56,042 nucleotides of DNA from NCBI GenBank assembly GCA_046351555.1, contig JAXLYI010000029.1, forward strand, positions 109,727 through 165,768, read 5' to 3'. This document shows, one piece after another, positions 10,248 to 53,826 of the stretch. The DNA comes from Polyangiales bacterium (GTDB lineage: Bacteria > Myxococcota_A > Polyangia > Polyangiales > Ga0077539). A program made the position numbers and the translations under genes. The notes below the pieces were generated by a model that worked only from the letters and a program-made list of their open reading frames with translations, did no database searches and had not been told where the DNA came from. The first letter of the stretch is position 1; each line of letters begins with the position of its first letter.

Positions 10248-10316
10248 GGCACCGCGCGCGGCGCGTGCTACGGTGCGCGCCCCGCCCCCTCCCCCACCGC
10301 CCCCGCAAGGTCCGTC

Positions 10317-10796
10317 ATGTCCGCCGTGAAGCCCGCCGAGGGCATCAAGCTCATCGCCGAGAACCGCCGCGCCGTCGTCCGCTACCACGTCGACGAGCGC
10401 ATCGAGGTGGGCGTCGCCCTCATGGGCTCGGAGGTGAAGAGCCTCCGCGAGGGCAAGATGGAGATCGGCGACGCCTACGCCGTCGTGCAGAACCACCAGC
10501 TCACGCTGATCAACGCGTACATCCCGCCCTACCGCTACGCGACGCTGATCAAGCACGAGGAGAAGCGCTCGCGCCGCCTGCTCGCGCACCGCGCGGAGAT
10601 CGACCGGCTCGACGGCAAGGTCTCGCAGCGCGGCTACACGCTCATCGCGCTGCGCGCGTACTTCAAGGACGGCAAGGTGAAGATCGAGCTGGGCCTCGCG
10701 CGCGGCAAGGAGACCGCCGACCGGCGCCAGGAGATCAAGAAGCGCGAGCAGGACAAGGAAGCGCGCGCCGAGATGGTGCGCGGCCGCAAGGGGTAG
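10317..10796 (+). CDS. smpB: SsrA-binding protein SmpB
   Basis: Canonical SmpB sequence: IAENRRAVVRYHVDERIEVGVALMGSEVKSLREGK...GYTLIALRAYFKDGKVKIELGLARGK. Confidence 0.95.
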   Translation: MSAVKPAEGIKLIAENRRAVVRYHVDERIEVGVALMGSEVKSLREGKMEIGDAYAVVQNHQLTLINAYIPPYRYATLIKHEEKRSRRLLAHRAEIDRLDGKVSQRGYTLIALRAYFKDGKVKIELGLARGKETADRRQEIKKREQDKEARAEMVRGRKG

Positions 10797-27361: not shown

Positions 27362-27433
27362 GGTGCGGTAGCCAAGAGGCCAGGCCACGGTTTGCAAAAC
27401 CGTTATACGTGGGTTCAAATCCCATCCGCACCT
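27362..27433 (+). tRNA. tRNA-Cys (anticodon GCA)
   Basis: Acceptor stem GGTGCGG/CCGCACC. Anticodon stem ACGGT/ACCGT with loop TTGCAAA. T-arm GTGGG-TTCAAAT-CCCAT. Discriminator T; CCA not encoded. Confidence 0.75.
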
Positions 27434-27508
27434 CCCCTCCGTTCCCCTTGCTGCACGATGGCGTCCCGAGACGCCCGCAGCGTGGGGTGAGCGCCCGTCC
27501 CCACGACC

Positions 27509-38526: not shown

Positions 38527-41085
38527 TTGTCGGCGGCGCTGCCCTGCGCCGCACCCCCGATGCCGACCGACGCCACCCCCGACGACGCCGACGCCCCCGC
38601 CGGGCTGCTCCCGCGGGCCGCCGGCGCCGCCGTGCTCGCGGTGGCCCTCGCCTTCCTCGCGGCGTGGCTCGCGGGCTCGGCCGCGTGGGCGGGGCCGCGG
38701 ATGAAGACCAACACCGCGCTCTCGCTCGCGCTCCTCGGCGCGGCGCTCCTCCTGCGGGCCTCGGGCGCGCGGGGCTCGCGCCGCGACCGCGCCGGCTGCG
38801 CCCTCGCCGCCCTCGCCGCGGCCGTCGGCGCCGCCTCGCTCGCAGAGTACGCCCTCGGCGTCGACCTCGGCATCGACCAGCTCCTCGCGCGCGACGCGAT
38901 CGTCCCGGAGAGCGCGCGCTTCCCCAACCGCATGTCGCCCAACGCCGCGCTCGGGCTCGCGCTCGCCGGCGTCGCGCTGGCCGCCTCGCGCGGCCGCCGC
39001 GCCGCGTGGGCGGTGGCCGCGCAGGTGGCCGACGGCGCGGTGCTCCTCGTCGGGCTCGCGGCGCTGCTCGGGTACCTCTACGGCGCGCGGATGCTCTACC
39101 AGCCGACGTCGTACATCCGCATGTCGCCCTTCACCGCGGGGGCCCTCGCCCTGCTGGGCGTCGGCACCCTCGCGCTGCGGCCCGGGCTCGGCGTGGCGCG
39201 GCTGCTGACGAGCGGCGAGGCGGCGGGCTTCGTCGCGCGGCGGCTCCTCGCGTTGAGCGTGGCGGCGCCGGTGCTGTTCGGGTGGCTCTGGCTCGAGGCC
39301 CAGCGGCGCGCGCTCTACGGCGCCGCCGAGGGGGCGGCGCTGATGGTCATCGGGGTGGTGGGCGCCTTCGGCGGCGTGGTGCTGCTGCTCGCGTACGCGG
39401 TCGACCTGGCCGACGCGCGGCGCCGGCTCATCGAGGCCGACCTGCGGCTGAGCAACGACCTCGCCTCCGAGCTCGCGCGCGCCTCGGCCGTCGGCGAGGT
39501 GGTGGCCGCGGCCCTGCGCCACGCCCCCGCCGCGCTCGACACCACCTTCGCGAGCGTGCTCCTGCGGGAGGGGCAGCGCCTCGAGCACGCCGCCAGCGCG
39601 GGCTACGCGCCCGAGGAGGTGCGGTCGTTCCCGGGGCTGCCGCTCGACGTCGACTACCCGGCGACGGTGGCGCAGCGCGCGGGGGCGCCGGTGTTCGTCG
39701 GGTCGCGGGTCGAGCTGCTGCGGCGGTTCCCGGTGATGGCCGGGGCGCCGCTCGGGCGCCGCGAGGCGTGGGCCGCGCTGCCGCTCAAGGGCCGCGAGGA
39801 GACGCGGGGCGTGCTGTGGCTCGGCTACGACACCCCGCGCGCCTTCGACGCCGCCGAGCGCGAGCGGATGGAGCGCGTCGCGTCGTCCCTGGGCCTCGCC
39901 CTCGACCGCGCGATGCTCCACGAGTCCGAGCAGCGCGCGCGGGCGCGGGCCGAGGAGGCGAGCCGGACGAAGGACGAGTTCCTCGCGCTGCTCGGGCACG
40001 AGCTGCGCAACCCGCTGGCGCCGATCGCGACGTCGCTCCAGCTCATGAAGCTGCGCTCGCCCGACGCCTTCGAGCGCGAGCGCGCCGTCATCGAGCGCCA
40101 GGTCGAGCACATGACCCGCCTCGTCGGCGACCTCCTCGACGTCGCCCGCATCACCCGCGGCAAGGTGGAGCTCAAGCTCCAGCGCGTCGAGCTCGGCGAG
40201 GTGTTCGCCGGCGCGGTGGAGACGGCCTCCGCGCTGCTCGAGGAGAAGCGCCACCGGCTCCACGCCGCCGTCCCCGCGCGCGGGCTCCCGGTGATGGCCG
40301 ACGCGCACCGGCTCGCGCAGGTGATCTCCAACCTCCTCACCAACGCCGCGAAGTACACCGACCCCGGCGGGCTTGTCACCGTCACCGCCGCGCGCGACGG
40401 CGACGACGTCGTCCTCTCCGTCAAGGACAACGGGATGGGCATCCCGGCCGCGCTCCTGCCGCGGGTGTTCGAGCAGTTCGTGCAGGGCGAGCGCACGCTC
40501 GACCGCTCGCGCGGCGGCCTCGGGCTCGGGCTCTCCATCGCCCGCTCGCTCGTCGAGCAGCACGGCGGCGCCATCTCCGCCCGCAGCGAGGGCCCGCGCC
40601 AGGGGAGCGAGTTCGTCGTCCGCCTGCCGCTCGACCTGTCGCGCCCGATCACCGACATCCGCCCGCCGCCCGCGCCGCCGCCCCCGGCCCCGGGCGTCAC
40701 CCGCGCGCGCGTGCTCGTGGTCGACGACAACCTCGACGCCGCCGACCTCTTCGCCGAGGCCCTCCGCGCCGACGGCCACGACGTCCGAGCGGCCTACGAC
40801 GGCCCCGGCGGGCTCCAGGCGGCCGACGGGTTCGCCCCCGAGGTGGCCTTCGTCGACATCGGGCTCCCGGTGATGGACGGCTACGAGCTCGCCCGCCGCC
40901 TGCGCGAGGCCCCGACGGGCCCGCGGCTCTTCCTCGTCGCCATCACGGGCTACGGCCAGGACTCCGACCGCGAGCGCAGCCGCGCCGCGGGCTTCGACCT
41001 CCACCTCGTGAAGCCCGTCGACCTCGACCGCGTCCTCGCCATCGCCGCCGGCCGCGAGCGCGCCTCGAAGCCCGCGCCCGCGTAG
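38527..41085 (+). CDS. hybrid sensor histidine kinase (membrane sensor + GAF-like + HisKA + HATPase + receiver)
   Basis: H-box LGHELRNPL. N-box LLTNAAKYT. G-boxes DNGMGI, GGLGLGLSI. Receiver domain VLVVDDN...D...LVKP. Confidence 0.85.
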   Translation: MSAALPCAAPPMPTDATPDDADAPAGLLPRAAGAAVLAVALAFLAAWLAGSAAWAGPRMKTNTALSLALLGAALLLRASGARGSRRDRAGCALAALAAAVGAASLAEYALGVDLGIDQLLARDAIVPESARFPNRMSPNAALGLALAGVALAASRGRRAAWAVAAQVADGAVLLVGLAALLGYLYGARMLYQPTSYIRMSPFTAGALALLGVGTLALRPGLGVARLLTSGEAAGFVARRLLALSVAAPVLFGWLWLEAQRRALYGAAEGAALMVIGVVGAFGGVVLLLAYAVDLADARRRLIEADLRLSNDLASELARASAVGEVVAAALRHAPAALDTTFASVLLREGQRLEHAASAGYAPEEVRSFPGLPLDVDYPATVAQRAGAPVFVGSRVELLRRFPVMAGAPLGRREAWAALPLKGREETRGVLWLGYDTPRAFDAAERERMERVASSLGLALDRAMLHESEQRARARAEEASRTKDEFLALLGHELRNPLAPIATSLQLMKLRSPDAFERERAVIERQVEHMTRLVGDLLDVARITRGKVELKLQRVELGEVFAGAVETASALLEEKRHRLHAAVPARGLPVMADAHRLAQVISNLLTNAAKYTDPGGLVTVTAARDGDDVVLSVKDNGMGIPAALLPRVFEQFVQGERTLDRSRGGLGLGLSIARSLVEQHGGAISARSEGPRQGSEFVVRLPLDLSRPITDIRPPPAPPPPAPGVTRARVLVVDDNLDAADLFAEALRADGHDVRAAYDGPGGLQAADGFAPEVAFVDIGLPVMDGYELARRLREAPTGPRLFLVAITGYGQDSDRERSRAAGFDLHLVKPVDLDRVLAIAAGRERASKPAPA

Positions 41086-41910: not shown

Positions 41911-42753
41911 CTACCGGGGCTTCGCGGGCGCCTCTTCGGCGTAGAGCACGCGGTCGGCGCGGAGCACGCGGACGCCGTGGGCCCCGCGCTGCCCGGTGGC
42001 GAGGTGGAGGTAGGGAGGCGACCAGCGCTCGACGCGGGCCACGAGGGTGGCCGGCTCGTGCCCCGGCGTCCGCACGAGCATCGAGAGCGCGCGGCGACCG
42101 CCCTGCGCGCGGGCGAAGAGCTCTTCGAACGCGGTTCGAACGCGGACGGGGCCCTCCTGGCCGACGCGCACCTCCCAGAGGTCGCGCGCCGAGGCGGGCC
42201 GGAGCACGCGGCCCACGTGGGCGAAGAGGTCGCGGACGCCGGCGACGTCCTCGCCCGCGCGGTGCCAGCGGCGCGCCGGGAGCCCGAGCTTCGCGGCGAG
42301 CGACGAGAGCCCGTACGCCTTCGTGTGCACCACGCGCCGCGCGAGGAGCACCGTGTCGAGCACGTGCCCGAGGAGCGCGCGTCCCGCGATTGCCCCGTAT
42401 GCGAGGTTGAGGAAGTCGACGTCGAGCGCGGCGCCGTGCATGACGGGGACGGCCCCGTCGAGGAGCTCGGCGACGCGCGGGGCGACGTCGGCGAACGCGG
42501 GCGCGTCGGCGAGCTGCTCGGGGGCGATGCCGTGGAGCGCGAGGGCGGCGGGGTTGGAGGGGACGTCGGTGCGGACGAGCGACGCGAACGCCCCCGCGAC
42601 GCGCTCGCCCTCGACGCGGGTGACGGCGACCTCGACGAGCGCGTCGCGCGCGGGGTCGGGGCCGGTCATCTCGCAGTCGAGGAAGGCGAAGGGGCAGCGC
42701 GCGAAGGCGGTGTCCCAGGGCGCACCGGGCGGCGGGTCGTCGGGGTGGATCAC
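41911..42753 (-). CDS. DnaQ-like 3'-5' exonuclease
   Basis: Exo I FLDCEMTG, Exo II-like, Exo III HRAGEDVAGVRDLF. GTG start assumed. Confidence 0.6.
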   Translation of the reverse strand: MIHPDDPPPGAPWDTAFARCPFAFLDCEMTGPDPARDALVEVAVTRVEGERVAGAFASLVRTDVPSNPAALALHGIAPEQLADAPAFADVAPRVAELLDGAVPVMHGAALDVDFLNLAYGAIAGRALLGHVLDTVLLARRVVHTKAYGLSSLAAKLGLPARRWHRAGEDVAGVRDLFAHVGRVLRPASARDLWEVRVGQEGPVRVRTAFEELFARAQGGRRALSMLVRTPGHEPATLVARVERWSPPYLHLATGQRGAHGVRVLRADRVLYAEEAPAKPR

Positions 42754-42853
42754 GCGGAGGGGGCGCAGGGTAGCGCGCCGGAGGCCCGCGGGTGAATGGG
42801 GTGCCGCAGCCCAGCGCCCACAGCCCGCTGCCCGCAGTCCGCCGCCCGCTGCT

Positions 42854-42896
42854 GGCGCCACTCCCCTCTCCAGCACGCGCTTCGGGTAACCCGCCG
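42854..42896 (-). promoter_or_regulatory. copy 1 of the recurrent ~40-nt motif (…GCGTGCTGGAGAGGGGAGTGGCGCC), minus orientation, ~100-120 bp upstream of the exonuclease start
   Basis: Reverse complement is cggcgggttacccgaagcgcgtgctggagaggggagtggcgcc. Confidence 0.5.
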
Positions 42897-42964
42897 TGAG
42901 GCTCGGCGAACGGCGGGGCCGTCGCTCGCCCACGGTCCACGACGGTTGCGGTAGTCTCCTCGTC

Positions 42965-43552
42965 GTGAGCGTCGTCCCGACCACCGCACCGAAGCGCCTC
43001 CGCACCTTCCGCGACATCATCGACGCACTGCCCGAGCACATGACCGGGCAGGTGATCGCCGGTCGCCTGGTGGTCATGCCACGTCCGGCGCCGCCCCACG
43101 TCGCGGCGGCGAGCGCGCTGATCCAGATCGTCGGTCCGCCCTACCAGTTCGGTTGGAATGGCCCCGGCGGCTGGTGGATCCAGTCGGAGCCGGAGCTTGT
43201 GCTCGGCATCGACCCGGACTTCGAGCCGCTCGACCCCGATCTCGTCGGGTGGCGCCGCGATCGGATGCCGCACCTGCCGGAGACCGCCGCGTTCGACGTG
43301 GTGCCCGACTGGGTGTGCGAGGTGCTCTCGCCCTCCACCGAGGTGATGGACCGCGCCGACAAGATGCCCTTCTACGCGCGCGCCGGCATCCCCCACGCGT
43401 GGCTCGTCGACCCGAAGGAACGCACCCTCGAAGCCTTCCGCCGCGACGGCGGGGTGTATCGACCCGTCGGCACGTGGCGCGGCGACGTGCGCGTGCGGGT
43501 CGAGCCCTTCGACGCGCTGGAGCTCGACCTCGCCCTCCTCTGGGCGCGCTGA
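42965..43552 (+). CDS. Uma2-family (DUF820) PD-(D/E)XK endonuclease
   Basis: Canonical Uma2 core PDWVCEVLSPSTEVMDRADKMPFYARAGIPHAWLVDP...LEAFRR. Confidence 0.7.
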   Translation: MSVVPTTAPKRLRTFRDIIDALPEHMTGQVIAGRLVVMPRPAPPHVAAASALIQIVGPPYQFGWNGPGGWWIQSEPELVLGIDPDFEPLDPDLVGWRRDRMPHLPETAAFDVVPDWVCEVLSPSTEVMDRADKMPFYARAGIPHAWLVDPKERTLEAFRRDGGVYRPVGTWRGDVRVRVEPFDALELDLALLWAR

Positions 43553-43594
43553 CCTCGCGCGAGTCGGAGGTCGCGGTTTCGCACGCGAACGTCG

Positions 43595-45454
43595 CTACGG
43601 CACCGGCATCTCGAACTGGACGCAGTAGTTCCGCTGGTCGCTGTGGAAGGTGAGCTCGGCCTCGCCCGTCGCGCCCATCCACGGACGGGAGAGCGTGACG
43701 GCGCCGTCGGTGCGGGCGGTCACGATCGTCTCCCCCGTGAGCCCGACCCCTTCGACGAGGTCGCGCACGCCGCGGGCCGCGAAGGCCGTCGCCGCGACGC
43801 CCGTGACCATCGTCGACCCGCGCGTCACCCGCGCGCGAATCACCGCGCGGTCGGAGCCCACGTACGGGTCGCTGTCGCGGAGCTGCCCCCGCCGCCCGGT
43901 GCTCGGCCCGCCCGCGTAGCCCGCGACGTCCTGGGTCATCGCGTAGCGCACGGACAGCCCGGTGCCGCGGGGCGCGGCGGCGAGGGTGATGGCGACGCTC
44001 GCCCCCATGATCTGCACGCCGGTGATGCGCAGGCGGCCGGTGCTGTCCTCCACCTCGAAGCCTCGGCCCATCGCCCACTCGGTGTAGGCGCTCTGGTGCG
44101 GCGCGGTGATGGACGTGTCCCAGGCGAGCGGCGCGACGGGCACGTCCATGTCCAGCGTGATCACCGCGCCCGCGCGCCGCGCCGCCCGCGGCTGCAGCGG
44201 CCGCCAGGGGTTGCCGCGCACCACCACCTCGTAGAACACCTGCGCGTACTTGATGCCGAGCCGCGCGTACCCGTAGGCGTCGAAGTGGACCGCGTCGGAG
44301 TACACGTACTGGTACTTCGGCCCGACGCACACCACCTCGCCGGGGTGGTCGACGCCGACGCGCCACTGCGCCTGCGTGGAGAGCGAGCGCGTCCCCATGG
44401 TGTTGGGGAAGGAGGCCTGCTGCGAGACGAACATCACCACCCGCTCGCGCTGCCCCGTGACGGCGCGGAGCTCGCGGTCGTAGTCCGTCCAGAGGCGGTA
44501 GAGGTCGGCCTCGTAGGTGGCGCGGGCGGTGTCGGTCTCGCCGTGCGTCACGATCACGCCGCGGTAGGCGAAGGGGACGCCGGCGGCGCGCGCGAGCGAG
44601 GTGACGGCGCGGGCCTCGTAGAGCGAGGCGGCGAAGGCGCGCCCGGTGCCGTTGCGCTCGATGCGGGTGATGCTCTGGCCGCTCTCGCCGACCACCGAGT
44701 GGACGGTGACGTAGTCCTCGCCGAGGGCCGCGCGCACGCGGGCGGTGAGGTCGTTGGCCATCGCGGCGTGCGGGGTCTCGCCGTAGATGTTGTTGGGGTA
44801 GAGCGGCCCCGCGGGGTACGGGGGCGTCGGGTAGCGCGGACGGATGGGTTCGACCAGCGGGCCGAGGGAGAGCGCGTCGCCCACCCCGTCGTAGAGAGGG
44901 GCGCTGCCGGTGTCGCGGAGGACGCGGTTGTTGTAGGGCTGCGTCGTGTGAATGGGGCGCGCGGCCGTCGCGCCGACCGAGAGGCTCTGCCCCGTACCGA
45001 CGATGCCGATCCAGGCGCGCGCGGGGCGGACGCTCGCGTCGGGGGCGACGTCGGGGGCGACGTCGGGGGCGACGTCGGGGGCGGCGTCGGCCCGGGCGTC
45101 ACCGACCGCGTCGGGGGCGGTGTCGAGGGGAACGTCGAGCGTCGCGTCCGGGGGGGAGGCGACGTCGACGATGTCGGCCGTGTCGGGGGCAGCGTCCGCT
45201 TCGTCCGCGACGTCGGCCGTGATGGAGGCGTCAGGTCCGTCGACGTGATCGCCCGCCACGTCCTCGATGGGGGCGACGTCCTCGACGGGGGCGACGTCCT
45301 CGACGGGGGCGACGTCCTCGATGGGGGCGACGTCGGCGACGTCGGCGCCGGCTTCGAGGCGGTCTTCGGCGGCGTCGACGGGCACATCGCTCGGGCCTTC
45401 CGAGCACGCGACGAGGAGGCCGACGATCCAGACGTGGGCGAGCGGGTGGCGCAT
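43595..45454 (-). CDS. SGNH/DUF303-type carbohydrate esterase lipoprotein (sialate-O-acetylesterase-like)
   Basis: Signal MRHPLAHVWIVGLLVACSEG. D/V/A/P-rich linker. GTGQSLSVG resembles the GQSN catalytic Ser block. Confidence 0.55.
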   Translation of the reverse strand: MRHPLAHVWIVGLLVACSEGPSDVPVDAAEDRLEAGADVADVAPIEDVAPVEDVAPVEDVAPIEDVAGDHVDGPDASITADVADEADAAPDTADIVDVASPPDATLDVPLDTAPDAVGDARADAAPDVAPDVAPDVAPDASVRPARAWIGIVGTGQSLSVGATAARPIHTTQPYNNRVLRDTGSAPLYDGVGDALSLGPLVEPIRPRYPTPPYPAGPLYPNNIYGETPHAAMANDLTARVRAALGEDYVTVHSVVGESGQSITRIERNGTGRAFAASLYEARAVTSLARAAGVPFAYRGVIVTHGETDTARATYEADLYRLWTDYDRELRAVTGQRERVVMFVSQQASFPNTMGTRSLSTQAQWRVGVDHPGEVVCVGPKYQYVYSDAVHFDAYGYARLGIKYAQVFYEVVVRGNPWRPLQPRAARRAGAVITLDMDVPVAPLAWDTSITAPHQSAYTEWAMGRGFEVEDSTGRLRITGVQIMGASVAITLAAAPRGTGLSVRYAMTQDVAGYAGGPSTGRRGQLRDSDPYVGSDRAVIRARVTRGSTMVTGVAATAFAARGVRDLVEGVGLTGETIVTARTDGAVTLSRPWMGATGEAELTFHSDQRNYCVQFEMPVP

Positions 45455-45563
45455 GGCCTACGCTATCCGGACCGGCTGCCGGTGGGGAGGAGGATCGGCG
45501 GCGGGCGGCGGTCGCCTCAGCTCCGCGCCCAGACTGGCGCGACAGGCTCACCAGGGCGCTCCG

Positions 45564-45606
45564 CGTCGGCGTGAACCTTACGCGTGCTGGAGGGGGGAGT
45601 GGCGCC
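45564..45606 (+). promoter_or_regulatory. copy 2 of the recurrent motif, plus orientation, ~100 bp upstream of the PQQ-propeller gene
   Basis: cgtcggcgtgaaccttacgcgtgctggaggggggagtggcgcc. Confidence 0.5.
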
Positions 45607-45707
45607 GGCAGCGGGCGGCGATGCGGCGGGCTCGCGGTGGCGTGGTGCGCGCGAGGGGCCTGGCGACGCCGGTGCCGACCGGACACGCGCGGGGTACGAT
45701 CGCGCCC

Positions 45708-47222
45708 ATGAGGCGGCCCTCCCGCGCAGTGCGTTCGGTGCTCAGCGTCGCTGCCTGCGCGCTCATCGCGGCGGGGGCGTACGGCGCCCGCGTGGCGCGC
45801 CGGCCCGCGCGACCCGCGACCGTCCCGTCGCGACCTCCACCCACCGCGCCGCCGTCGGTGGGCCTCCGCGGCGTCTGGCAGCGCCAGCTCCCCTTCAACG
45901 GCGACGTGACGGTCGCCGCCGGGCGCTGGGTGGTCGTCGAGGGCGTGGACGACTACGCCGTCCTCGACGCGGAGACGGGCCGCGTCGCGTTCCCCTGGCG
46001 GTCGTTGCCGGCGCGCCGGCAATTCGTCGTCGGGGAGGGGCCAAGGCCGATCGGGCGGCTGCTCCACGCCACGCCGCAGGGCCTCCGCGCGGTGGACCTG
46101 GACACCGGCGCGACCCGCTGGGAGGTCGCGCGGGACTGGAGCCGCGCGCGGTGGCCCGCGCATTTTGCGGCGACCGGCGGGCTCATCCTGACGTGCGACG
46201 CGGACTCCGTCACCGCGCTCGACAACCGAACCGGCGCGACGCGCTGGACCGCCACCGCGCCCGGCTGCGTCTCCCTCCTGGTCGAGGCGGGCCGCGCGTA
46301 CGTCCACACCGGAGACGCGCTCACCGCCCTCGACGCGCGCTCGGGACGGCGGCTCTGGACGGCCCGCGCCCGGCATCAGGGGCTCGACCTCCGCGAGGCC
46401 GTGGCGGCGTCGAACGGCCGCGTGGCGACGTGGACGCACCACCCCCGTGGCGTGGAGCTCGCCCCGTTCCTCGACGACTTCGACGGCGCCACGGGGCGAC
46501 GGCGGTACGCGTTGGACCTGGACTCGCTCGGGCTGCGCCGGGACGACGACGAGGCGAGGATCACCGCCCGCGACGACCTGCTGCTGCTCGACGCACGCGG
46601 GGCCAACTCACTCGCACACGACGTGCTCATGGTCTCCCGGGACACCGGCGAGGTCCGCTGGCGCGCACAGCGCGCTTGGAGAGGCGACTACACGCTCACC
46701 GACGACGCGCTCTACGCCTACAGCGAGTCCCACCGCATGCTGCTCACCATCGACCCCCGCTCGGGACGCGAGCGCGGGCGCCAGAGCGCGAGGGTCGACT
46801 ACCCGTACGCAACGCTGGTGCCCGTGCGAGATGCGCCGTCCGTTCGCGTCGTGGAGGTCCGCAGCGGCTGGCTTGGAGGCACCACCGTCACGGCCCTCGC
46901 GGCGGCGACGGCGTTGCCCGTCGAGGAGGTGCACATCGAGGGGAGGCGGGCGTGGGACGCCGCGGGAGACGCCCGCTGCGACGCGCGAGGGCGTGTGCGG
47001 GTCGGCGGCGAGGTGTTCTCGACGGACGGCCGCGGGCGCTTCTCCGCGACCGTGCAGGCGCGGGGGTCGGTCGCCGTCGAGTGGCTCACCGACGACGACG
47101 CGGACGTGGGGGGCGCGACGCCGCGGTGCCTCTCGCCCGAGCCGGTGACGGTCTGGCTCGACGGCCGACGCGGGCCCTACGACGTGACGCTGCCGGTCGA
47201 TCGCTCGGGGGCCATCTGGTGA
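45708..47222 (+). CDS. PQQ-like beta-propeller repeat protein (BamB-like)
   Basis: Signal MRRPSRAVRSVLSVAACALIAAG. Repeats AVDLDTGATRWE, ALDNRTGATRWT, ALDARSGRRLWT. Confidence 0.7.
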   Translation: MRRPSRAVRSVLSVAACALIAAGAYGARVARRPARPATVPSRPPPTAPPSVGLRGVWQRQLPFNGDVTVAAGRWVVVEGVDDYAVLDAETGRVAFPWRSLPARRQFVVGEGPRPIGRLLHATPQGLRAVDLDTGATRWEVARDWSRARWPAHFAATGGLILTCDADSVTALDNRTGATRWTATAPGCVSLLVEAGRAYVHTGDALTALDARSGRRLWTARARHQGLDLREAVAASNGRVATWTHHPRGVELAPFLDDFDGATGRRRYALDLDSLGLRRDDDEARITARDDLLLLDARGANSLAHDVLMVSRDTGEVRWRAQRAWRGDYTLTDDALYAYSESHRMLLTIDPRSGRERGRQSARVDYPYATLVPVRDAPSVRVVEVRSGWLGGTTVTALAAATALPVEEVHIEGRRAWDAAGDARCDARGRVRVGGEVFSTDGRGRFSATVQARGSVAVEWLTDDDADVGGATPRCLSPEPVTVWLDGRRGPYDVTLPVDRSGAIW

Positions 47223-47250
47223 CGCCCCGCGCGCGGCGGTGACGCGCCCC

Positions 47251-47961
47251 TCACGCCGCCTTCGGCCGCTGCCGCGCGACGACGGCCTTGAGGATCGCCG
47301 CGATCGCGTCCGCCTCGGCGTGCTCGGAGAGCTCGCGCGACGGGTGATAGTCCGCCCGCACCGCCGCGCCCCCGTCGCCCTCGGCGCGCGCGAAGCGACC
47401 CCGCACGAAGGTCCACGCGTCGCCGATGGTGAAGCAGCCGAACACCTCGTGCTCGGCGTGGGGGTCGTCGTCGAGCCGCCGCAGCGCGAGGGAGAGCATC
47501 GCCCCCTGGAGCTGCGGCAGCGGGTCGGCCGCGTCGAGCGCCCGCTTCGCCTCCACCACGAGGAAGAAGGGGTCGACCGGCTGCCCCGCGGCGTCGGCCG
47601 CGAGCGCGCCGTCGACGATCCCGTGGAGCCGCAGGGCCGCGCCGTCGAGCCCGCGGAGGTCGCCGCGCACGACGACGTTCAGCGCGACCTGCGACCACGC
47701 CCGGACGTCGTCGACCTCGGCCACCATGAGCAGGGGGTAGATCGCGCGGGCCCAGAGGGTCGCCTCGTTCGCGCGGCTGGTGCTGGTGAAGGCGAGGCGG
47801 CGCCGCAGCGCGTCGAGGTCGGCGCGCTCCTGCGCGGAGAGGGCGGTGGTCGCGAAGGTGGCCCAGGGCTCCGCCGCGGAGGCGTGGAGCCGCGCCTGGA
47901 GGAACGGCAGGTCGAGCGCGCCGTCGGCGGCGGTGAGCTCGGAGAACGGGAGCGTCTTCAT
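47251..47961 (-). CDS. hypothetical protein, possible PD-(D/E)XK-like nuclease fold (weak)
   Basis: 236 aa. Possible D...EAK motif in DPFFLVVEAKRALD. Divergent from the recombinase gene. Confidence 0.4.
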   Translation of the reverse strand: MKTLPFSELTAADGALDLPFLQARLHASAAEPWATFATTALSAQERADLDALRRRLAFTSTSRANEATLWARAIYPLLMVAEVDDVRAWSQVALNVVVRGDLRGLDGAALRLHGIVDGALAADAAGQPVDPFFLVVEAKRALDAADPLPQLQGAMLSLALRRLDDDPHAEHEVFGCFTIGDAWTFVRGRFARAEGDGGAAVRADYHPSRELSEHAEADAIAAILKAVVARQRPKAA

Positions 47962-48077
47962 AGGCGCCGCAGTGGAACCGCGCCGGAGGACGTCGGTCAA
48001 GGGGCGCGCTGCTGCATCGACGTTGCCGCCCGCCGCCACGCCGCCCGCTGCCACGCCGCCCGCTGGGGGCACCCTAC

Positions 48078-48113
48078 GCTCTCCAGCACGCGTAAGGTAA
48101 ACGCCGACGCGAC
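48078..48113 (-). promoter_or_regulatory. copy 3 of the recurrent motif (partial), minus orientation, ~120 bp upstream of the hypothetical gene at 47961
   Basis: Reverse complement is ccgtcgcgtcggcgtttaccttacgcgtgctggagag. Confidence 0.45.
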
Positions 48114-48441
48114 GGTCTACACATAACCCTCCTGTACCGGGGGGAACGCACGCCCCTCGGCCGCCCCGGCCGCCTCCTCTGACAGACGCGCCCCCGCGGC
48201 CGGTCGTCGCCGCGTCCGGGCTGCTCGCGCTGGCTCGCTGGATGGCGACACTCCGGGATGGCCAGGAAACGCCCACCCTCCGCCCCGCCGGCTCAACTCC
48301 CGCTGCCGCTCCCCGAGACGCGAGCCCCGCAGTTCACCTGGGGCGCACTCCCTCAGAACTCACGTCGGGTCGTGATCGGGGTGCTCCGTGCGATGGTGCT
48401 CCAGTGGCTCGCGCGACCGCGCGCCGACGAGGGGGGACGCG

Positions 48442-50616
48442 ATGAGCGCCAACTCCCCTGACGCCAACTCCCACGCCGCGGTCTACTCCTCGAAGGTCGC
48501 CTCGCGTCACCACGAGCGCATCGCCATCGTCTACGTCCGCCAGTCCACCAACTACCAGCTCCTGCACCACCAGGAGTCCACGAGGATGCAGTACGACCTC
48601 GTCGACCGCGCCGTCGCGCTCGGGTGGCGTCGCGACCGTGTCCTCGTGATCGACGCGGATCTCGGTCGCTCGGGCGCGAGCACGGAGGGGCGGCCGGGCT
48701 TCAAGCACATGGTGGCGGAGGTCGGCCTCGGTCACGTCGGGATCCTGCTCGGCGTCGACGTGTCGCGGATCGCGCGCAACTGCCGCGACTGGTACCAGCT
48801 GCTCGAGATGTGCTCGCTCTTCGGCACGCTCATCAGCGACCTGGACGGGGTCTACGACCCGAGCCACTACAACGACCGGCTGCTGCTCGGCCTCAAGGGG
48901 ACGATGAGCGAGGCCGAGCTGCACACGATCAAGATGCGCATGCTGGAGGGGCGTCTGCACAAGGCCGAGCGCGGCGAGCTCGCCATGCAACTGCCGACGG
49001 GCTACGTGCGCCGCCCCTCGGGCGAGGTCGCGCTGGAGCCCGACGAGCAGGCGCGCGCGGTGGTCGCGCTGGTCTTCGACGTCTTCGACCGGTGCGGCTC
49101 GCTCAGCGGGGTGCTGCGGCACCTCGTGTCGAACGGCATCCAGCTCCCCGTGCGCGTCCAGCACGGCCCCGAGAGGGGAGATCTGCAGTGGCGTCGCCCC
49201 GTCCGGATGACGCTGTACGGCATCCTGACGCATCCGATCTACGCGGGCGTGTACGTGTGGGGGCGTCGCACGCGCGATCCGCGCCGCAGAGACCCGGCGC
49301 GCGCCGGGAGCGGGCGCGTCTTCACGCGCGCCGCTCGCGGCATGGTGTACCTTCCCAGCCGGGCGCCGGCCTACATCACGGAGGAGCGCTACGAGATGAA
49401 TCGCGCGCGACTCTCCGGCAACCGCCAGATCCAGCGGGGGGCTCCGCGCTCCGGCGACGCGCTCGTCGCGGGGCTGCTGCGCTGCGGCCGATGCGGCCAC
49501 CGCATGGGCACCAACTACAACGAGCACCCCCGCTACGCGTGCACGCACGAGTCGAGGACCTACGCGGGGCCGATCTGTCAGTCGCTCGCCGCGGCGTGCG
49601 TCGACGAGGCCGTCGAGGCGCTGCTGCTGCGCGCGCTGGAGCCCGCGTCGCTTGAGGTCAGCCTCGCGGTCGCGGCGGACATCGACGCGGAGCGGACGCG
49701 CACCGAGACGATGTGGCTGCAGCGGCTCGAGCGCGCGCAGCAGGACGTCGATCGCAGCCGCCGTCAGTACAACGCCGTCGAGCCGGAGAACCGTCTGGTC
49801 GCTCGCACGCTGGAGCGGCAGTTGGAGGAGCACCTGCGCGCGAAGCTCGAGCTCCAGGAGAACTACCGGCGCTATCAGGCGGAGCGCCCCGGGACGCTGA
49901 CGGCGGATGAGCGCGAGATGATCCGCGGCCTCGCGTCGGACGTCCCCGCGCTGTGGCGCGCATCGACCACGACGATCGCGCAGAGGAAGTCCATCGTCCA
50001 CCAGCTCGTGCAGGAGGTCGCCGTGACGGTCGACGGCGAGAGCGAGCGCGTCGACCTGGCGATCCGATGGGTCGGCGGTCACCGCACCCAGACGCGGCTC
50101 GCGCGCCCCGTGGCGAAGCTCTCGCAGCTCAGCTACTACGCGGACCTGCTGGCCCGCGCGCGCGCCCTTCGACTCGAGGGCGGGAGCTACGGCGACATCG
50201 CGTCGGCGCTCAACGCGGAGGGCTGGCGCCCCGCGAGGCAGCGCGGCGACTTCAGCGACTCGATGGTGAGCACGCTCCTCGCGGAACGTGACGGCACGAG
50301 GCCGCGGCGCGCGCGGGGCGACGCCGCACACGCGCGTGACGCACGTCGCGGCGACGACGGCCATCACGGCGGCGATGCTCTCAGCGACGCCGAGCTGCGC
50401 GAGCACGAATGGACGCCGGACGCGCTCGCGAAGCAGCTCGACGTGCACGTCTCTACGCTGCACCGCTGGGTCCACAAAGGGCAGATGAAGGGGCGCAAGA
50501 TCCCGAGCGCGAACCTCATGGGCCGCTGGCTGCTGTGGGCCGACCCCGACGAGTTGGGGCGGCTGCGCGCGCTCCGCGCGACGGCGAACGCGTCGCCGTC
50601 CCACGCCTCCAAGTAG
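48442..50616 (+). CDS. large serine recombinase (resolvase catalytic domain + recombinase domain + zinc ribbon + coiled coil + C-terminal HTH)
   Basis: Catalytic Ser block IAIVYVRQSTNYQ. Zn ribbon LRCGRCGHRMGTNYNEHPRYAC. C-terminal HTH-like LAKQLDVHVSTLHRWVHKG. Confidence 0.85.
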   Translation: MSANSPDANSHAAVYSSKVASRHHERIAIVYVRQSTNYQLLHHQESTRMQYDLVDRAVALGWRRDRVLVIDADLGRSGASTEGRPGFKHMVAEVGLGHVGILLGVDVSRIARNCRDWYQLLEMCSLFGTLISDLDGVYDPSHYNDRLLLGLKGTMSEAELHTIKMRMLEGRLHKAERGELAMQLPTGYVRRPSGEVALEPDEQARAVVALVFDVFDRCGSLSGVLRHLVSNGIQLPVRVQHGPERGDLQWRRPVRMTLYGILTHPIYAGVYVWGRRTRDPRRRDPARAGSGRVFTRAARGMVYLPSRAPAYITEERYEMNRARLSGNRQIQRGAPRSGDALVAGLLRCGRCGHRMGTNYNEHPRYACTHESRTYAGPICQSLAAACVDEAVEALLLRALEPASLEVSLAVAADIDAERTRTETMWLQRLERAQQDVDRSRRQYNAVEPENRLVARTLERQLEEHLRAKLELQENYRRYQAERPGTLTADEREMIRGLASDVPALWRASTTTIAQRKSIVHQLVQEVAVTVDGESERVDLAIRWVGGHRTQTRLARPVAKLSQLSYYADLLARARALRLEGGSYGDIASALNAEGWRPARQRGDFSDSMVSTLLAERDGTRPRRARGDAAHARDARRGDDGHHGGDALSDAELREHEWTPDALAKQLDVHVSTLHRWVHKGQMKGRKIPSANLMGRWLLWADPDELGRLRALRATANASPSHASK

Positions 50617-50772
50617 GCACACCCACCTCCGCTCGCGTCGCGCTCTCGTGGTCCGCCCCCGGTGGTAGAATTACGGCCGCGCGTTCGCGCGACGGGCGTG
50701 TCGACTCACAGATCGTCACGCCCGTCAACCATGAGATCTCCCAGGAACAGGTGCATCATGTCTACGCCTCCG

Positions 50773-50815
50773 CGTCGGCGTTTACATGTCGCGTGCTGGA
50801 GAGGGGAGTGGCGCC
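50773..50815 (+). promoter_or_regulatory. copy 4 of the recurrent motif, plus orientation, 157 bp after the recombinase stop
   Basis: cgtcggcgtttacatgtcgcgtgctggagaggggagtggcgcc. Together with copy 3 it forms an imperfect inverted pair around the recombinase gene. Confidence 0.5.
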
Positions 50816-50836
50816 CGCTGCTCCATTCGTTGCCCG

Positions 50837-53725
50837 TCAGAACGCCCCCGTGGCCCCCTTGGTCGCGCCCGCGTCGCGCCGCATGCGCGGCCGTCGCCCC
50901 GCGCCCGCATCCACGCGCGCCGTCCCCGCGTCGACGCGCGCTGCTGGGGGCTCCGGCGCCGGCTCCGTCGTCGCCACCGGCGGGGCCGGCGGCTGGAACG
51001 CGAGGCGCTTCACCGTCACGGTCACCTCGACGCCGCCGAGTCGCGTGTGGAGCGTCTCCTCGCGGCCGCCGCGCCAGATGAACCACGCGCCGCCGACGCG
51101 GTCGGGCAGCGCCCAATCCATCTCGTCGACCGCCACGCGGAACGGGACCCCCGGCACCAGCCGCGCCGCGTCGATCGTCCCCTCGCAGTGGCGCGTCCCC
51201 TCGCACGGGCCGATGTGCACCGACTCGCCGCGCGGGCGAACCGTGCCGCGCAGGTCGGGCGGGCTGTCGTCCGGGTCCCACGGGCGGCCGAGGCGCGTCC
51301 GGTCGGCGTCCATGCGGACCTTGATCTGAACCCACACCTCGGTCCCGACCGCGGCCGCGGGCTCGGGCGGGTCGGCGGTGACGCGCGCCGCCCACCACGA
51401 CCACGCGCCGAAGCCCACGCCCGCGAGCGACGCGAGCACCACCAACGCGGTGAGCCACGATCCCCGCGCGGCCGGCGGCGCCCCGGCGGCGGGGACGTGG
51501 CGCGCGGTGGTGTCGGGCAGATCCACCGCGAGCGCGGGCGAGGGGACCGGGTCGCCGAACGAGCGGGCGAGCATCCCGATCACCTCGTCGGCGTGGTCCG
51601 CGGCGCGCGCCTGGGCGGGCGCGAGGAAGGCGTTGTGGAAGAGCCCGCGCGCGGTGACGGCGTCGGTCACGTTGGAGAGCGCCACCCACAGCACCGCGCT
51701 GCCCGAGGCGGCCTGGTCGCGCAGGGGCTCCCAGCGACGTCGGCTGCCGCCGGTCGCGCCCGTGACGTGGGTGTAGCCGCGGAAGGTCGCGCGGTCGCCG
51801 GGGGCCGTCGGGTCGAGCGGGAGGTGGCGCATCCCGCAGAGGAGCGCGAGCTTGAGCGCGAGGTGGCCCGCGGGCAGACGTCCGGCCTCGCCGCGCAGCC
51901 ACGCCACGGCGTCGCGCAGGGCCACCGCCGCCGCGCCCGGCGCCGACGGGAGCACGTTGGCCCCGCCGTGGAAGCGCTCGAGCCAGTCGAGCACGTAGCC
52001 CCGCGCGGTCTGCGCCTCGAGCTGCTGCCACGAGCGCTCGTAGGCGCGGACGAGGTCTTCGGGCGAGGTGACGCCGAGGTCGGCCGGGCCCCACTCGAGC
52101 ACGAGCCCGCGGTGGTCGAGCGCCCAGAGGAGCGCGTTGAGCTCGCGGTCCTCGTCGCGCGGGGGCCGTGGGAGCGCGGGGAGCTCGACGCCGGGCGCCA
52201 CCACGTCGAGCCACGCGAGGAGCTCGCCGGTTCGAAGCGCGCGCTTGAGCGAGTCCCACACGTCGGCGACCTGCGCCGTCACCCGCAGCGGCGCGGGCGA
52301 GGTGAGCACCACCGCGTTGCCGGCGCCGTCGGCCACCGTCAGCGTCGTGGTGCGCGCGTGCTGGTAGAGGCCGCGCCACACCGGGAGTTGGTCGTTGGTG
52401 CGGCGCGCGTCGGCGCGGGCGCGGCGGAGGCGGTCGGCCCACTGCTCGTCGCGCAGCACCGGTGGCAGCGATTCGAGCCACGCCAGGAGGTCGCCCGAGG
52501 CGTGGAGGGAGGCGAGCGGTTCGCGCAGCTCGGGGCGGGAGAGGACCGCGCGGGCGAGCGAGTCGGGGTCGCCCACGGCCGCGTCGCCCACCACCAGGGG
52601 CTCGCCGAGCGACCAGGCGAGGCGCTTCATCCCCGTGGCCTCGCCGCGCGCGACGAGGTCGGCGGCGCCGGCGGCCGGGGCCCAGCCCTGCGCGCGGAGC
52701 CACGCGCCGAGCGTCCCTTCGCGGGCCGCGCGCGACAGGTCGTCGAGCACCACCGAACCCCGGCGCACGGCGGCGGCGATCTCGCCCGGCGACCGGAGCC
52801 ACGTCGCGCCCACCACCAGCACGCGGAGCCCGAGCGCCCACGCCTGTGAGTGGAGCGCGAGGGACTCGGCGTCGCCGCGGTCGGCCACCTGGCGCGCGTC
52901 GCGCGAGCGCGACACCACCTCGGGCGACGCGGCGTTGGCGCGGAGCCACGCGAGCACGGTCCCGCTCCGCACGGCCTCGTAGCCCTGCGCGGGGTGCCGG
53001 AGCAGCGCGACCGCCGCGTCGTCCATGGTGCTCGGCGCGCCCGGCAGCGCGTGGAGCGGCGACCACGATCCCTGGCCCGGCGCGGGGAGCGCGTAGCCCC
53101 GCTCGCGCGCGACGCCGCGGGCGGTGTCGGCGTCGAGCCCGCGTGATTCGGCGGCCTCGACGAGGCGTTCGAGCTCGGCGGGGGTGAGCGGGCGGGGCGC
53201 GCCGGCGAGCACGCGGAGGGCCTCTTCGAGCGCGGCCACCTGCGCGCGGCGGAGCTCGGCGAGGGCGGCCTCGGCGCGCCCGTCCTCGGGCCCGAGGGCG
53301 TCGAGGCGCGACTGGAGCGCTCGCTGCGCGACCTCGGCCTGCGCGCGGGCGGCGGCGTCGCGACGGGCGACGGCGTCGATGGCGCGTCGGGCGAAGTCGC
53401 AGCGGGCGCGGAGGGCGGCGTCGGGCGGCGGCGTGCGGAGAAGCTCCGCGGGCGCCACGTCGGGCCAGAGGGCCGCCATCAGCGGGCGGTCGGTGACGAG
53501 CGCGGCGACGACGGCGACGGACACCTGGTCGCTGAGCGGGGCGGTCCGGTCGGCCGCGCGGACCTTGCGGCGCTGACCCCCCGCGGGGCCCTCGGCGAGG
53601 CCGTCGTCGGGGGCGCTGGCGGGCTCGAGCCACGGGGCGCCCGACGCCGAGGGGGCCGCGGGGGCGGGCGTCGACGGGGAGGCGTCGACCTCCAAAAAGA
53701 CCTCGCGGGGTTCGCTCTCGGGCAC
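50837..53725 (-). CDS. large (~960 aa) modular protein: ~100-aa helical repeats with a recurring LAWL motif, one TM helix, and a C-terminal extracytoplasmic domain
   Basis: Repeats TVLAWLRAN, LGAWLRAQG, DLLAWLESL, ELLAWLDVV, YVLDWLERF. TM helix WLTALVVLASLAGVGFGAWSWWAA. Start placed at a GTG just outside the family-B element; true start uncertain. Confidence 0.45.
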   Translation of the reverse strand: MPESEPREVFLEVDASPSTPAPAAPSASGAPWLEPASAPDDGLAEGPAGGQRRKVRAADRTAPLSDQVSVAVVAALVTDRPLMAALWPDVAPAELLRTPPPDAALRARCDFARRAIDAVARRDAAARAQAEVAQRALQSRLDALGPEDGRAEAALAELRRAQVAALEEALRVLAGAPRPLTPAELERLVEAAESRGLDADTARGVARERGYALPAPGQGSWSPLHALPGAPSTMDDAAVALLRHPAQGYEAVRSGTVLAWLRANAASPEVVSRSRDARQVADRGDAESLALHSQAWALGLRVLVVGATWLRSPGEIAAAVRRGSVVLDDLSRAAREGTLGAWLRAQGWAPAAGAADLVARGEATGMKRLAWSLGEPLVVGDAAVGDPDSLARAVLSRPELREPLASLHASGDLLAWLESLPPVLRDEQWADRLRRARADARRTNDQLPVWRGLYQHARTTTLTVADGAGNAVVLTSPAPLRVTAQVADVWDSLKRALRTGELLAWLDVVAPGVELPALPRPPRDEDRELNALLWALDHRGLVLEWGPADLGVTSPEDLVRAYERSWQQLEAQTARGYVLDWLERFHGGANVLPSAPGAAAVALRDAVAWLRGEAGRLPAGHLALKLALLCGMRHLPLDPTAPGDRATFRGYTHVTGATGGSRRRWEPLRDQAASGSAVLWVALSNVTDAVTARGLFHNAFLAPAQARAADHADEVIGMLARSFGDPVPSPALAVDLPDTTARHVPAAGAPPAARGSWLTALVVLASLAGVGFGAWSWWAARVTADPPEPAAAVGTEVWVQIKVRMDADRTRLGRPWDPDDSPPDLRGTVRPRGESVHIGPCEGTRHCEGTIDAARLVPGVPFRVAVDEMDWALPDRVGGAWFIWRGGREETLHTRLGGVEVTVTVKRLAFQPPAPPVATTEPAPEPPAARVDAGTARVDAGAGRRPRMRRDAGATKGATGAF

Positions 53726-53826
53726 CGTCAGCGCGCGGCAGCGTGCAGCACCCCCCCGGCGGGCGCAAGGGCGGCGGTGGCCCCGCTGGGATTCGGAGCA
53801 GGTTCTGTTTCGCGGTGTGGTCGCGC

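Follow-up and report, generated by a model that had tools for sequence, protein, structure and literature searches.

A 56,042-nt stretch of contig JAXLYI010000029.1 from a Polyangiales bacterium (GenBank assembly GCA_046351555.1), referred to here as the window (G+C content, 75.5%), contains four related motif sites, c1 to c4, two of which bracket a gene for a large serine recombinase (Table 1). The four sites are copies of a dispersed intergenic repeat of Polyangiales (Myxococcota) of at least 145 nt, and c3 and c4 are probably halves of such repeats, cut at a fixed CGCG by the insertion of a 2.7-kb element that carries the recombinase as its only gene. An earlier note on this DNA had offered two readings of the sites, as a promoter or operator shared by a small regulon or as the ends of recombinase-associated mobile or invertible units. 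The second comes closer, in that c3 and c4 do mark the junctions of an element, but the motif is the target of that element and not its end, and c1 and c2 are intact and unoccupied. A concrete structure can take the place of a speculative regulon or invertible unit, with defined element ends, a common core of 4 bp, a target (c2) that is unoccupied and 2.5 kb distant, and a simple-insertion allele in a near-identical strain.

Element boundaries and the simple-insertion allele

The ends of the element were located by comparing the window with 18 contigs of other samples (L112 to L124 and L145 to L149), all taken from the recombinase's own 90% cluster. Within positions 48108 to 50774, these contigs are 94.5 to 99.97% identical to the window, and similarity further out is accounted for by motif-type flank, as is the excess in their best local matches, which end at 50774 to 50799. 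All 18 have the same left end (CGCG followed by ACGGTCTACACATAACCC) and the same right end (CATGTCTACGCCTCCGCG), and CGCG is present at every junction. To the left of CGCG-ACGGTCTACAC, the DNA consists of motif-type flanks of several variants (window, L114, L119, L120, and L148) or is unrelated (L113/L118, L121, and L115), and the flanks to the right of CTACGCCTCCGCG vary likewise; the same element is found with at least five distinct left flanks and at least five distinct right flanks, and five contigs (L116, L117, L122, L146, and L148) stop exactly at its boundary. Because identical ends lie in differing flanking DNA, the element is a site-specific mobile unit. It stops at the CGCG in the left box of the motif (48108 and 50774), with the conserved core of the motif outside, in host DNA, and its terminal inverted repeats match the reverse complement of the other end at 36 of 60 positions. 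Other insertion sites have the centre CTCCG-CG-T(C/G)GGCG (L112/L113 and L121). A second repeated target, GGCTCCTCCGCGTGGGCGGAGATGGACC, with a CTCCG-CG-TxGGCG centre, is used by a 97% variant of the element and occurs twice, approximately 55 to 60 nt apart, in each of the L112 right flank and the L113/L118 left flank.

The most informative of these contigs, L145, differs from window positions 47686 to 50774 by 1 mismatch in 3,089 nt (99.97% identity) and has the same left flank, including c3, but on the right CTCCGCG is followed by GAGCGCCCAGACGAGCC..., a subtype-B left arm in reverse complement, and the contig has other sequence at the place of c4. When its two flanks are joined, a complete repeat copy is obtained that aligns with c2 over approximately 145 nt, through GGGCGCTCCGCGTCGGCG; the element has therefore inserted at the CGCG inside one repeat copy, of which c2 is the unoccupied equivalent, with an attB-like site, GGGCGCTC-CGCG-TCGGCGTGAAC (CGCG at 45562 to 45565), and a left arm common to L102, L132, and L134. 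The window differs on the right, where the flank is not the left arm of the c3 copy but the core-side half of another copy (c4); both c3 and c4 are subtype-B copies reduced to their core-side halves by a cut at the same CGCG. The earlier note had described c3 and c4 as an imperfect inverted pair enclosing only the recombinase gene. They are inverted and they enclose that gene alone, but the inverted similarity extends over 77 nt (48074 to 48150 versus 50732 to 50808) at 75% complementarity and is made up of two unrelated parts, the terminal repeats of the element itself and, outside them, the repeat halves. To arrive at such an arrangement, either a second recombination at the same CGCG or an assembly mis-join is required, and the possible routes are a deletion of approximately 0.2 kb, which is the simplest, an inversion against a more distant copy, and a mis-join. 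L145 ends in GGCGGCGGTCGCCTC, identical to the start of the left arm of c2, as if a head-to-head partner came next.

We suggest that excision by the recombinase releases the element as a circle, in which the ends would be joined into an attP-like site, CTACGCCTC-CGCG-ACGGTCTAC (..CATGTCTACGCCTCCGCGACGGTCTACACATAAC..); the left half of this predicted site resembles the left half of the target. The circle would then recombine conservatively with the attB-like GGGCGCTC-CGCG-TCGGCGTTTAC in the left box of the repeat, the empty c3 site being predicted to read ..GGGCGCTCCGCGTCGGCGTTTACCTTACGCG.., and every subtype-B copy, c2 included, would be a potential landing site. The polarity of serine integrase sites is set by the central dinucleotide, as in Bxb1 and phiC31; since the four types of junction here all share a palindromic CGCG, the sites would be without built-in polarity, and the element might insert in either orientation, invert in place, or bring about deletion or inversion against a neighbouring repeat copy. 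On this scheme, the state of the window would have followed from simple insertion into the c3 copy, as in L145, and the subsequent loss of approximately 0.2 kb lying between the right-junction CGCG and c4, a head-to-head partner copy. Catalysis by this recombinase, crossover within the CGCG, the circular intermediate, and the route to the c3/c4 arrangement are the steps that we infer. With a confidence that falls a little short of even, we further propose that the element represents a widespread, unnamed class of minimal insertion sequences whose sole gene encodes a large serine recombinase of approximately 700 aa and that this subfamily homes to a REPIN-like host repeat via the palindromic CGCG.

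The dispersed intergenic repeat

The earlier note was correct in reporting four related sites in the window. A 25-mer, GCGTGCTGGAGAGGGGAGTGGCGCC, is present at 42854 to 42878 (minus strand), 45582 to 45606 (plus strand; 1 mismatch), and 50791 to 50815 (plus strand), against 0.00 matches expected from the shuffled window. The fourth copy, c3 (match at 48074 to 48111, minus strand), has CGCGTCGGCGTTTACCTTACGCGTGCTGGAGAG in common with the others and then reads CGTAGGGTGCC where they have GGGAGTGGCGCC; the agreement takes in the left box, runs half-way through the core, and ceases thereafter. A profile built from six copies found exactly these four sites (E values of 5e-26 to 2e-19, which are not independent, as the four sites were part of profile training) and nothing further in the 56 kb up to an E value of 10. 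A core common to all four copies, as the earlier note had it, was borne out in part: c1, c2, and c4 share the 25-mer, but c1 lacks the left box CGTCGGCGTTTAC and carries CACGGCGGGTTACCC instead, marking a different subtype, and c3 differs in its right half. The spacing of approximately 2.6 kb in alternating orientation is confirmed, with start-to-start distances of approximately 2.7, 2.5, and 2.7 kb and orientations of -, +, -, and +.

The positions that had been given relative to genes hold also. The distance from the end of the copy to the start of the gene downstream is 100 nt for c1 (RNase_T exonuclease; GTG at 42753), approximately 102 nt for c2 (PQQ_2 protein; approximately 45708), and 117 nt for c3 (ATG at 47961), all three copies being in divergent intergenic regions; c4 lies between two convergent gene ends, starting 157 nt past the stop codon of the recombinase gene (50616) and ending 22 nt short of that of the gene for a 962-aa protein (50837), which it adjoins. 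The left part of c1, which lies between the exonuclease and Uma2 genes, reads CCGCCG..CGGCGGGTTACCC, contains no CGCG landing site, and aligns with the subtype-A copies of L086, L139, and L142. Despite its subtype-A left arm, c1 has the same unusual right half, GGGAGTGGCGCC, as the subtype-B copies c2 and c4; this half was not seen in copies of other genomes, where the metagenome pattern used could not match the variant, and its presence in all three copies suggests exchange or homogenisation between copies within this genome.

In order, the repeat consists of a G-rich tandem array, a left arm (two subtypes), (G)TTACC, 4 to 6 variable nucleotides, GCGYGCTGGAGAGCGTAGG, a GCCCC-N4-GGGGC hairpin, and a further G-rich array. 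Its core, GCGYGCTGGAG, is invariant and is followed in most copies by AGCGTAGG and the hairpin, which is 83% paired, with one pair changed on both sides. Approximately 27 copies were counted on approximately 17 contigs (GC, 0.70 to 0.78) from one Polyangiales metagenome-assembled genome (MAG) and several metagenomes: L086 and L102 belong to one Lake Mendota Polyangiales MAG, approximately 16 copies are on high-GC metagenome contigs, and a few more were found by profile search. The pattern scan of genome contigs was loose, its matches being mostly due to chance, and among the matches listed only L086 and L102 are real. Head-to-head pairs occur in five contigs (L132, L134, L135, L139, and L142). 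All copies tallied for gene context are intergenic and show no preferred orientation: 10 of 18 face the start of a same-strand gene and 8 of 18 the 3' end of a convergent gene, and, of the convergent genes, a cytochrome b/c gene, an ABC transporter gene, and the conserved 962-aa gene were verified as real. According to the earlier note, occurrence at hundreds of sites without positional bias would make the motif a generic dispersed repeat; it is such a repeat in kind.

A REP/REPIN-like non-coding repeat is the identity that we favour for it, at odds that are about even. As in the REP, BIME, and REPIN sequences mobilised by RAYT proteins, the copies are extragenic and lie in either orientation to genes, most have GTAG with a GC-rich hairpin, inverted doublets are frequent, and subfamilies are genome specific. 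The GTAG and GC-rich palindrome (CGTAGG plus GCCCC-N4-GGGGC) are found in c3 and in nearly all metagenome copies. In contrast to REP and REPIN sequences, the unit is far longer, with approximately 110 nt conserved upstream of the GTAG hairpin and G-rich tandem arrays on its flanks; c1, c2, and c4, which have GGGAGTGGCGCC, lack the GTAG, and no RAYT (Y1 transposase) gene is present in the window. The arrays, on both sides of the repeat, have units of 7 to 14 nt and are always G rich on the motif strand; unit sequence (GGGCGAC, GCGGGGC, and GGCGGCGAGCTACG) and copy number vary among copies, and many fit the G-quadruplex pattern (window 48014 to 48060, L086 1 to 150, L133, L131, and L145 3110 to 3170). 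With no Rfam match, G-rich arrays on both sides, and frequent head-to-head pairs, the family is an undescribed feature of Polyangiales intergenic DNA.

Several other identities were considered and rejected. GCTGGAGAGCG resembles the D-arm of tRNA-Ala, but neither ARAGORN nor Rfam finds anything; a coding sequence or leader peptide is contradicted by a frame that differs among copies relative to the motif and by an indel between variants; and the inner parts of the head-to-head pairs are unlike the element's ends, contrary to a miniature inverted-repeat transposable element derived from it. An upstream hairpin, CCGCCG/CGGCGG, has one compensatory case (L086) and a C-A mismatch in 5 of 13 copies, and a competing stem fits better.

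Alternative explanations

Control of the exonuclease, the PQQ protein, and the gene at 47961 as a small regulon, from a shared promoter or operator, is very improbable. It would account for the location of c1, c2, and c3 100 to 117 nt upstream of same-strand start codons, and the gene starts faced by 10 of the 18 tallied copies are in keeping with it, but the other 8, including c4 and both arms of the L132 pair, face convergent 3' ends; the motif is on many Polyangiales contigs, the genes downstream of it are unrelated to each other, no sigma-70-like hexamers are present in 42600 to 51000, and variable G-rich arrays on both sides and head-to-head pairs are traits of repeats and not of operators. 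The near-equal facing, together with the three verified convergent genes, rules out promoter or operator function as the role of the family. The earlier note had found the spacing unsuitable for sigma-54, and rightly so: GG-N11-GC, as read from the sequence, is one base too long for GG-N10-GC. Candidate sigma-70 and extracytoplasmic function-type promoters were likewise rejected, the former for want of a consensus match (TTTACC to TAGGGT would take a spacer of 19 to 20 nt) and the latter because AC-N18-CGTA is two bases too long and its "spacer" is the most conserved part. We also think it unlikely that the repeat gives rise to or folds into a structured RNA (for example, a small RNA or mRNA-end element), with the conserved boxes as the two strands of a stem. 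RNAalifold does pair CTC(bulge)CRGCG with CGYGCTG-GAG, with 97.7% of cells paired, two variable stem positions change in a one-sided manner (G-U to A-U and G-U to G-C), and the second hairpin, GCCCC-N4-GGGGC, comes next in most copies. Against this, no pair of the main stem (helix 1) is changed on both sides and the whole structure has one such pair, in the second hairpin of one sequence; the observed percentage paired is reached by 57 of 500 shuffles; the motif copies match no Rfam family, whether at the gathering threshold or at E values up to 1, a tRNA-Cys being the sole match in the window at the gathering threshold; there is no U-tract terminator; and c1, c2, and c4 are without the second hairpin.

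A further reading takes the motif as the element's own terminal inverted repeat; c3 to c4 would then be either a complete element or an invertible switch, and c1 and c2 would be solo ends or the ends of a second, recombinase-less unit. The inverted placement of c3 and c4 around the recombinase alone and the occurrence, at three other loci, of the same motif variant, inverted, on both flanks are as this reading would have it, and the inner distance between c1 and c2 (42895 to 45565; 2,671 bp) is close to the 2,667 bp of the element. That interval holds two ordinary genes (Uma2 and SASA-like), and both copies are intact, so a second cassette was discounted and the equal length treated as coincidence. 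We judge the reading improbable, as the same element has non-motif flanks in L112, L113/L118, L115, and L121 and the opposite repeat half on the right side of L145; contigs break exactly at the CGCG and not at the outer edge of the motif; the complete left arms of c1 and c2 match solo copies elsewhere, and hence neither copy is a truncated end; no resemblance to the ends of the element is seen in the inner parts of head-to-head pairs; and the recombinase core without motif arms is already seen in L113, L121, and L145. Of more weight, while still on balance unlikely, is an assembly artefact in which two or more copies of the element sit in different repeats and the left flank of one has been joined to the right flank of another. 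The different right flank of L145, the abrupt stop of L146 (99.96% identity) at 50774, as at a graph branch, and the differing flanks of the 962-aa gene in 95.7%-identical relatives all point in this direction. However, the source contig (165,768 bp) runs through the element, where an unresolved repeat would usually break a contig; a real deletion against a head-to-head partner fits as well, such pairs being common (five contigs); and an artefact would alter the history of c4 alone and not the nature of the element or the repeat.

Insertion of the element into dispersed repeats remains the reading that we prefer, and a number of observations count against it or some part of it. Neither a circle junction nor an empty c3 site was seen directly; L119 reads CTCCGCG plus ACG, which is compatible with joined ends, just 3 nt of this being informative. 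The inverted same-variant flanks at three other loci could reflect one copy holding the element in either orientation, or paired copies, head to head, whose arms are identical, but they would also be expected from a long terminal repeat of the element; at the window locus, a single orientation is seen (window and L145). The head-to-head partner in L145 is a 15-nt match at the contig end, and the assembler may have produced the c4 junction by joining across a 2.67-kb repeat, without any real rearrangement. The gene-context tally covers 18 copies and used crude open reading frame (ORF) calls based on third-position G+C, and, as three of the four window copies face gene starts, the motif may have been co-opted locally as regulatory DNA. 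Lastly, the motif is absent beside 67%- and 54%-identical homologues of the recombinase (L109, L110, and L111), and L150 and L151, to which the motif profile was not applied, have no similarity to the window outside the gene. Since more distant homologues have no adjoining repeat, the evidence of repeat targeting applies to this subfamily alone.

The recombinase, related systems, and gene neighbourhood

The recombinase has the Pfam domains Resolvase (PF00239; 6.4e-20, residues 46 to 197 of the 742-aa ORF), Recombinase (PF07508; 4.8e-12), and Zn_ribbon_recom (PF13408; 4e-07), with a weak C-terminal HTH_23 and without DUF4368, and it has PDB matches to the SPbeta integrase over residues 75 to 356. 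It falls below the cut-off of every NCBIfam model (the nearest, XisF, at 84 bits versus a cut-off of 375) and belongs to neither of the named equivalog groups XisF and CcrA/B/C. Its homologues number in the thousands; the best 120 are approximately 660 to 720 aa long and 52 to 67% identical, and nearly all lie on contigs of approximately 2.3 to 6 kb from soil and freshwater metagenomes, one cluster being on 30 contigs. Small contigs and occurrence on many contigs are the usual signature of a multi-copy element, and the pattern suggests an abundant, undescribed family resembling insertion sequences. In Sorangium cellulosum (CP012673; L111 9633 to 13615), the 54%-identical homologue lies between an SpvB ORF and an opposite-strand TcdB_toxin_midN/RHS ORF, and the element seems to have interrupted a Tc-toxin B gene.

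Among known systems, the closest in logic is that of phiRv1 and REP13E12, in which a large serine recombinase integrates an element into a dispersed genomic repeat; Bibb and Hatfull reportedly found in 2002 that the phiRv1 serine integrase targets REP13E12 and that several copies can serve as attB. The scale is different, phiRv1 being a prophage-like element of approximately 10 kb with a separate directionality factor and REP13E12 a repeat of approximately 1.4 kb with ORFs, compared with a one-gene element of 2.67 kb and a non-coding unit of approximately 145 nt here. REP13E12 of Mycobacterium tuberculosis contains a prophage attachment site (PMC13061034). ISPpu9, ISPpu10, ISPa11, and IS621 of the IS110 family are small one-gene elements found at a fixed position in a dispersed extragenic repeat (PMC1525189, PMC12288879, and PMC11208160), and, as for those elements, a repeat target offers many harmless landing sites; they employ DEDD transposases with a bridge or seeker RNA, however, whereas a large serine recombinase implies no guide RNA. 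Multi-targeting large serine recombinases may have evolved toward sequences present at many sites (PMC10083194), and these enzymes, like TnpX of Tn4451 and TndX of Tn5397, act as transposases with several targets per genome, as may be the case here; elements of the Tn4451/Tn5397 type carry cargo, mostly have DUF4368, and use GA or TT cores, in contrast to the cargo-free element described here, with its CGCG and no DUF4368. The inverted sites around a segment with a serine recombinase gene recall the Hin and Gin segments, but those have small invertases, 26-bp crossover sites, an enhancer, and a flanking-gene switch, unlike the large serine recombinase, hybrid-junction bracketing sites, and presence at other loci seen for this unit. 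A limited literature search found no description of a one-gene, cargo-free large serine recombinase element.

Such elements appear to be abundant in soil and freshwater metagenomes and have barely been described. A known attP-like/attB-like pair with a naturally multi-copy target would be of interest for the study of serine integrases and for genome-engineering tools, and the finding is relevant to the part played by dispersed repeats in rearranging the very large genomes of Myxococcota. If the proposed class of minimal insertion sequences is real, it would provide a natural, self-contained integrase with many genomic landing pads, and the same enzyme-site pair could insert either way, undergo inversion in place, and cause deletions or inversions of the DNA that separates neighbouring repeat copies.

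Table 1. Repeat copies, element, and neighbouring genes in the window (gene calls from third-position G+C and Pfam)
Feature	Position	Strand	Description
c1	42820..42929	-	Intact repeat copy, subtype A; profile match 42929-42820
c2	45497..45642	+	Intact full-length copy, subtype B; aligns over ~145 nt with the empty site rebuilt from L145
c3	48014..48107	-	Core-side half (B' arm, core, G-rich array), subtype B, cut at CGCG; left junction of element; flank identical in L145
c4	50775..50836	+	Core-side half (B' arm and core) from another subtype-B copy; forms the right junction in this assembly
Mobile element	48108..50774	+	2,667 bp counting CGCG at each end; one gene; imperfect terminal inverted repeats
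Left terminal inverted repeat (P' arm)	48108..48150	+	CGCGACGGTCTACACATAACCCTCCTGTACC...
Right terminal inverted repeat (P arm)	50732..50774	+	...GGAACAGGTGCATCATGTCTACGCCTCCGCG
Large serine recombinase gene	48442..50616	+	724 aa; P0001, NCBI MFO0608432.1; 100% match to P0001
Histidine kinase	38527-41085	+	
RNase_T exonuclease	41911-42753	-	
Uma2	42966-43552	+	
SASA-like lipoprotein	43595-45454	-	
PQQ_2 protein	~45708-47222	+	
Hypothetical protein	47251-47961	-	
Conserved 962-aa protein	50837-53725	-	

The rest of the window is ordinary chromosome, with genes for SmpB, a carboxyltransferase, PhoD, and kinases. The SmpB gene lies at 10248 to 10793, with no tmRNA gene detected in the window, and a lone tRNA-Cys gene at 27362 to 27435; nothing about them is unusual. 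Synteny via orthologues of the 962-aa gene was tried and abandoned, as flanks are not conserved even at 95.7% identity: the gene (window 50832 to 53785) is present at that identity in L154, L155, and L156, the DNA on either side is unrelated to the window, and L154 and L155 end in G-rich arrays just past its stop. The region around this gene is highly plastic. The N-terminal part of the SASA-like lipoprotein gene (45010 to 45380) contains tandem repeats of 12 nt (at least 13 copies) and 18 nt (at least 8 copies), which encode (D/E)VAP-type repeats behind a lipoprotein signal.

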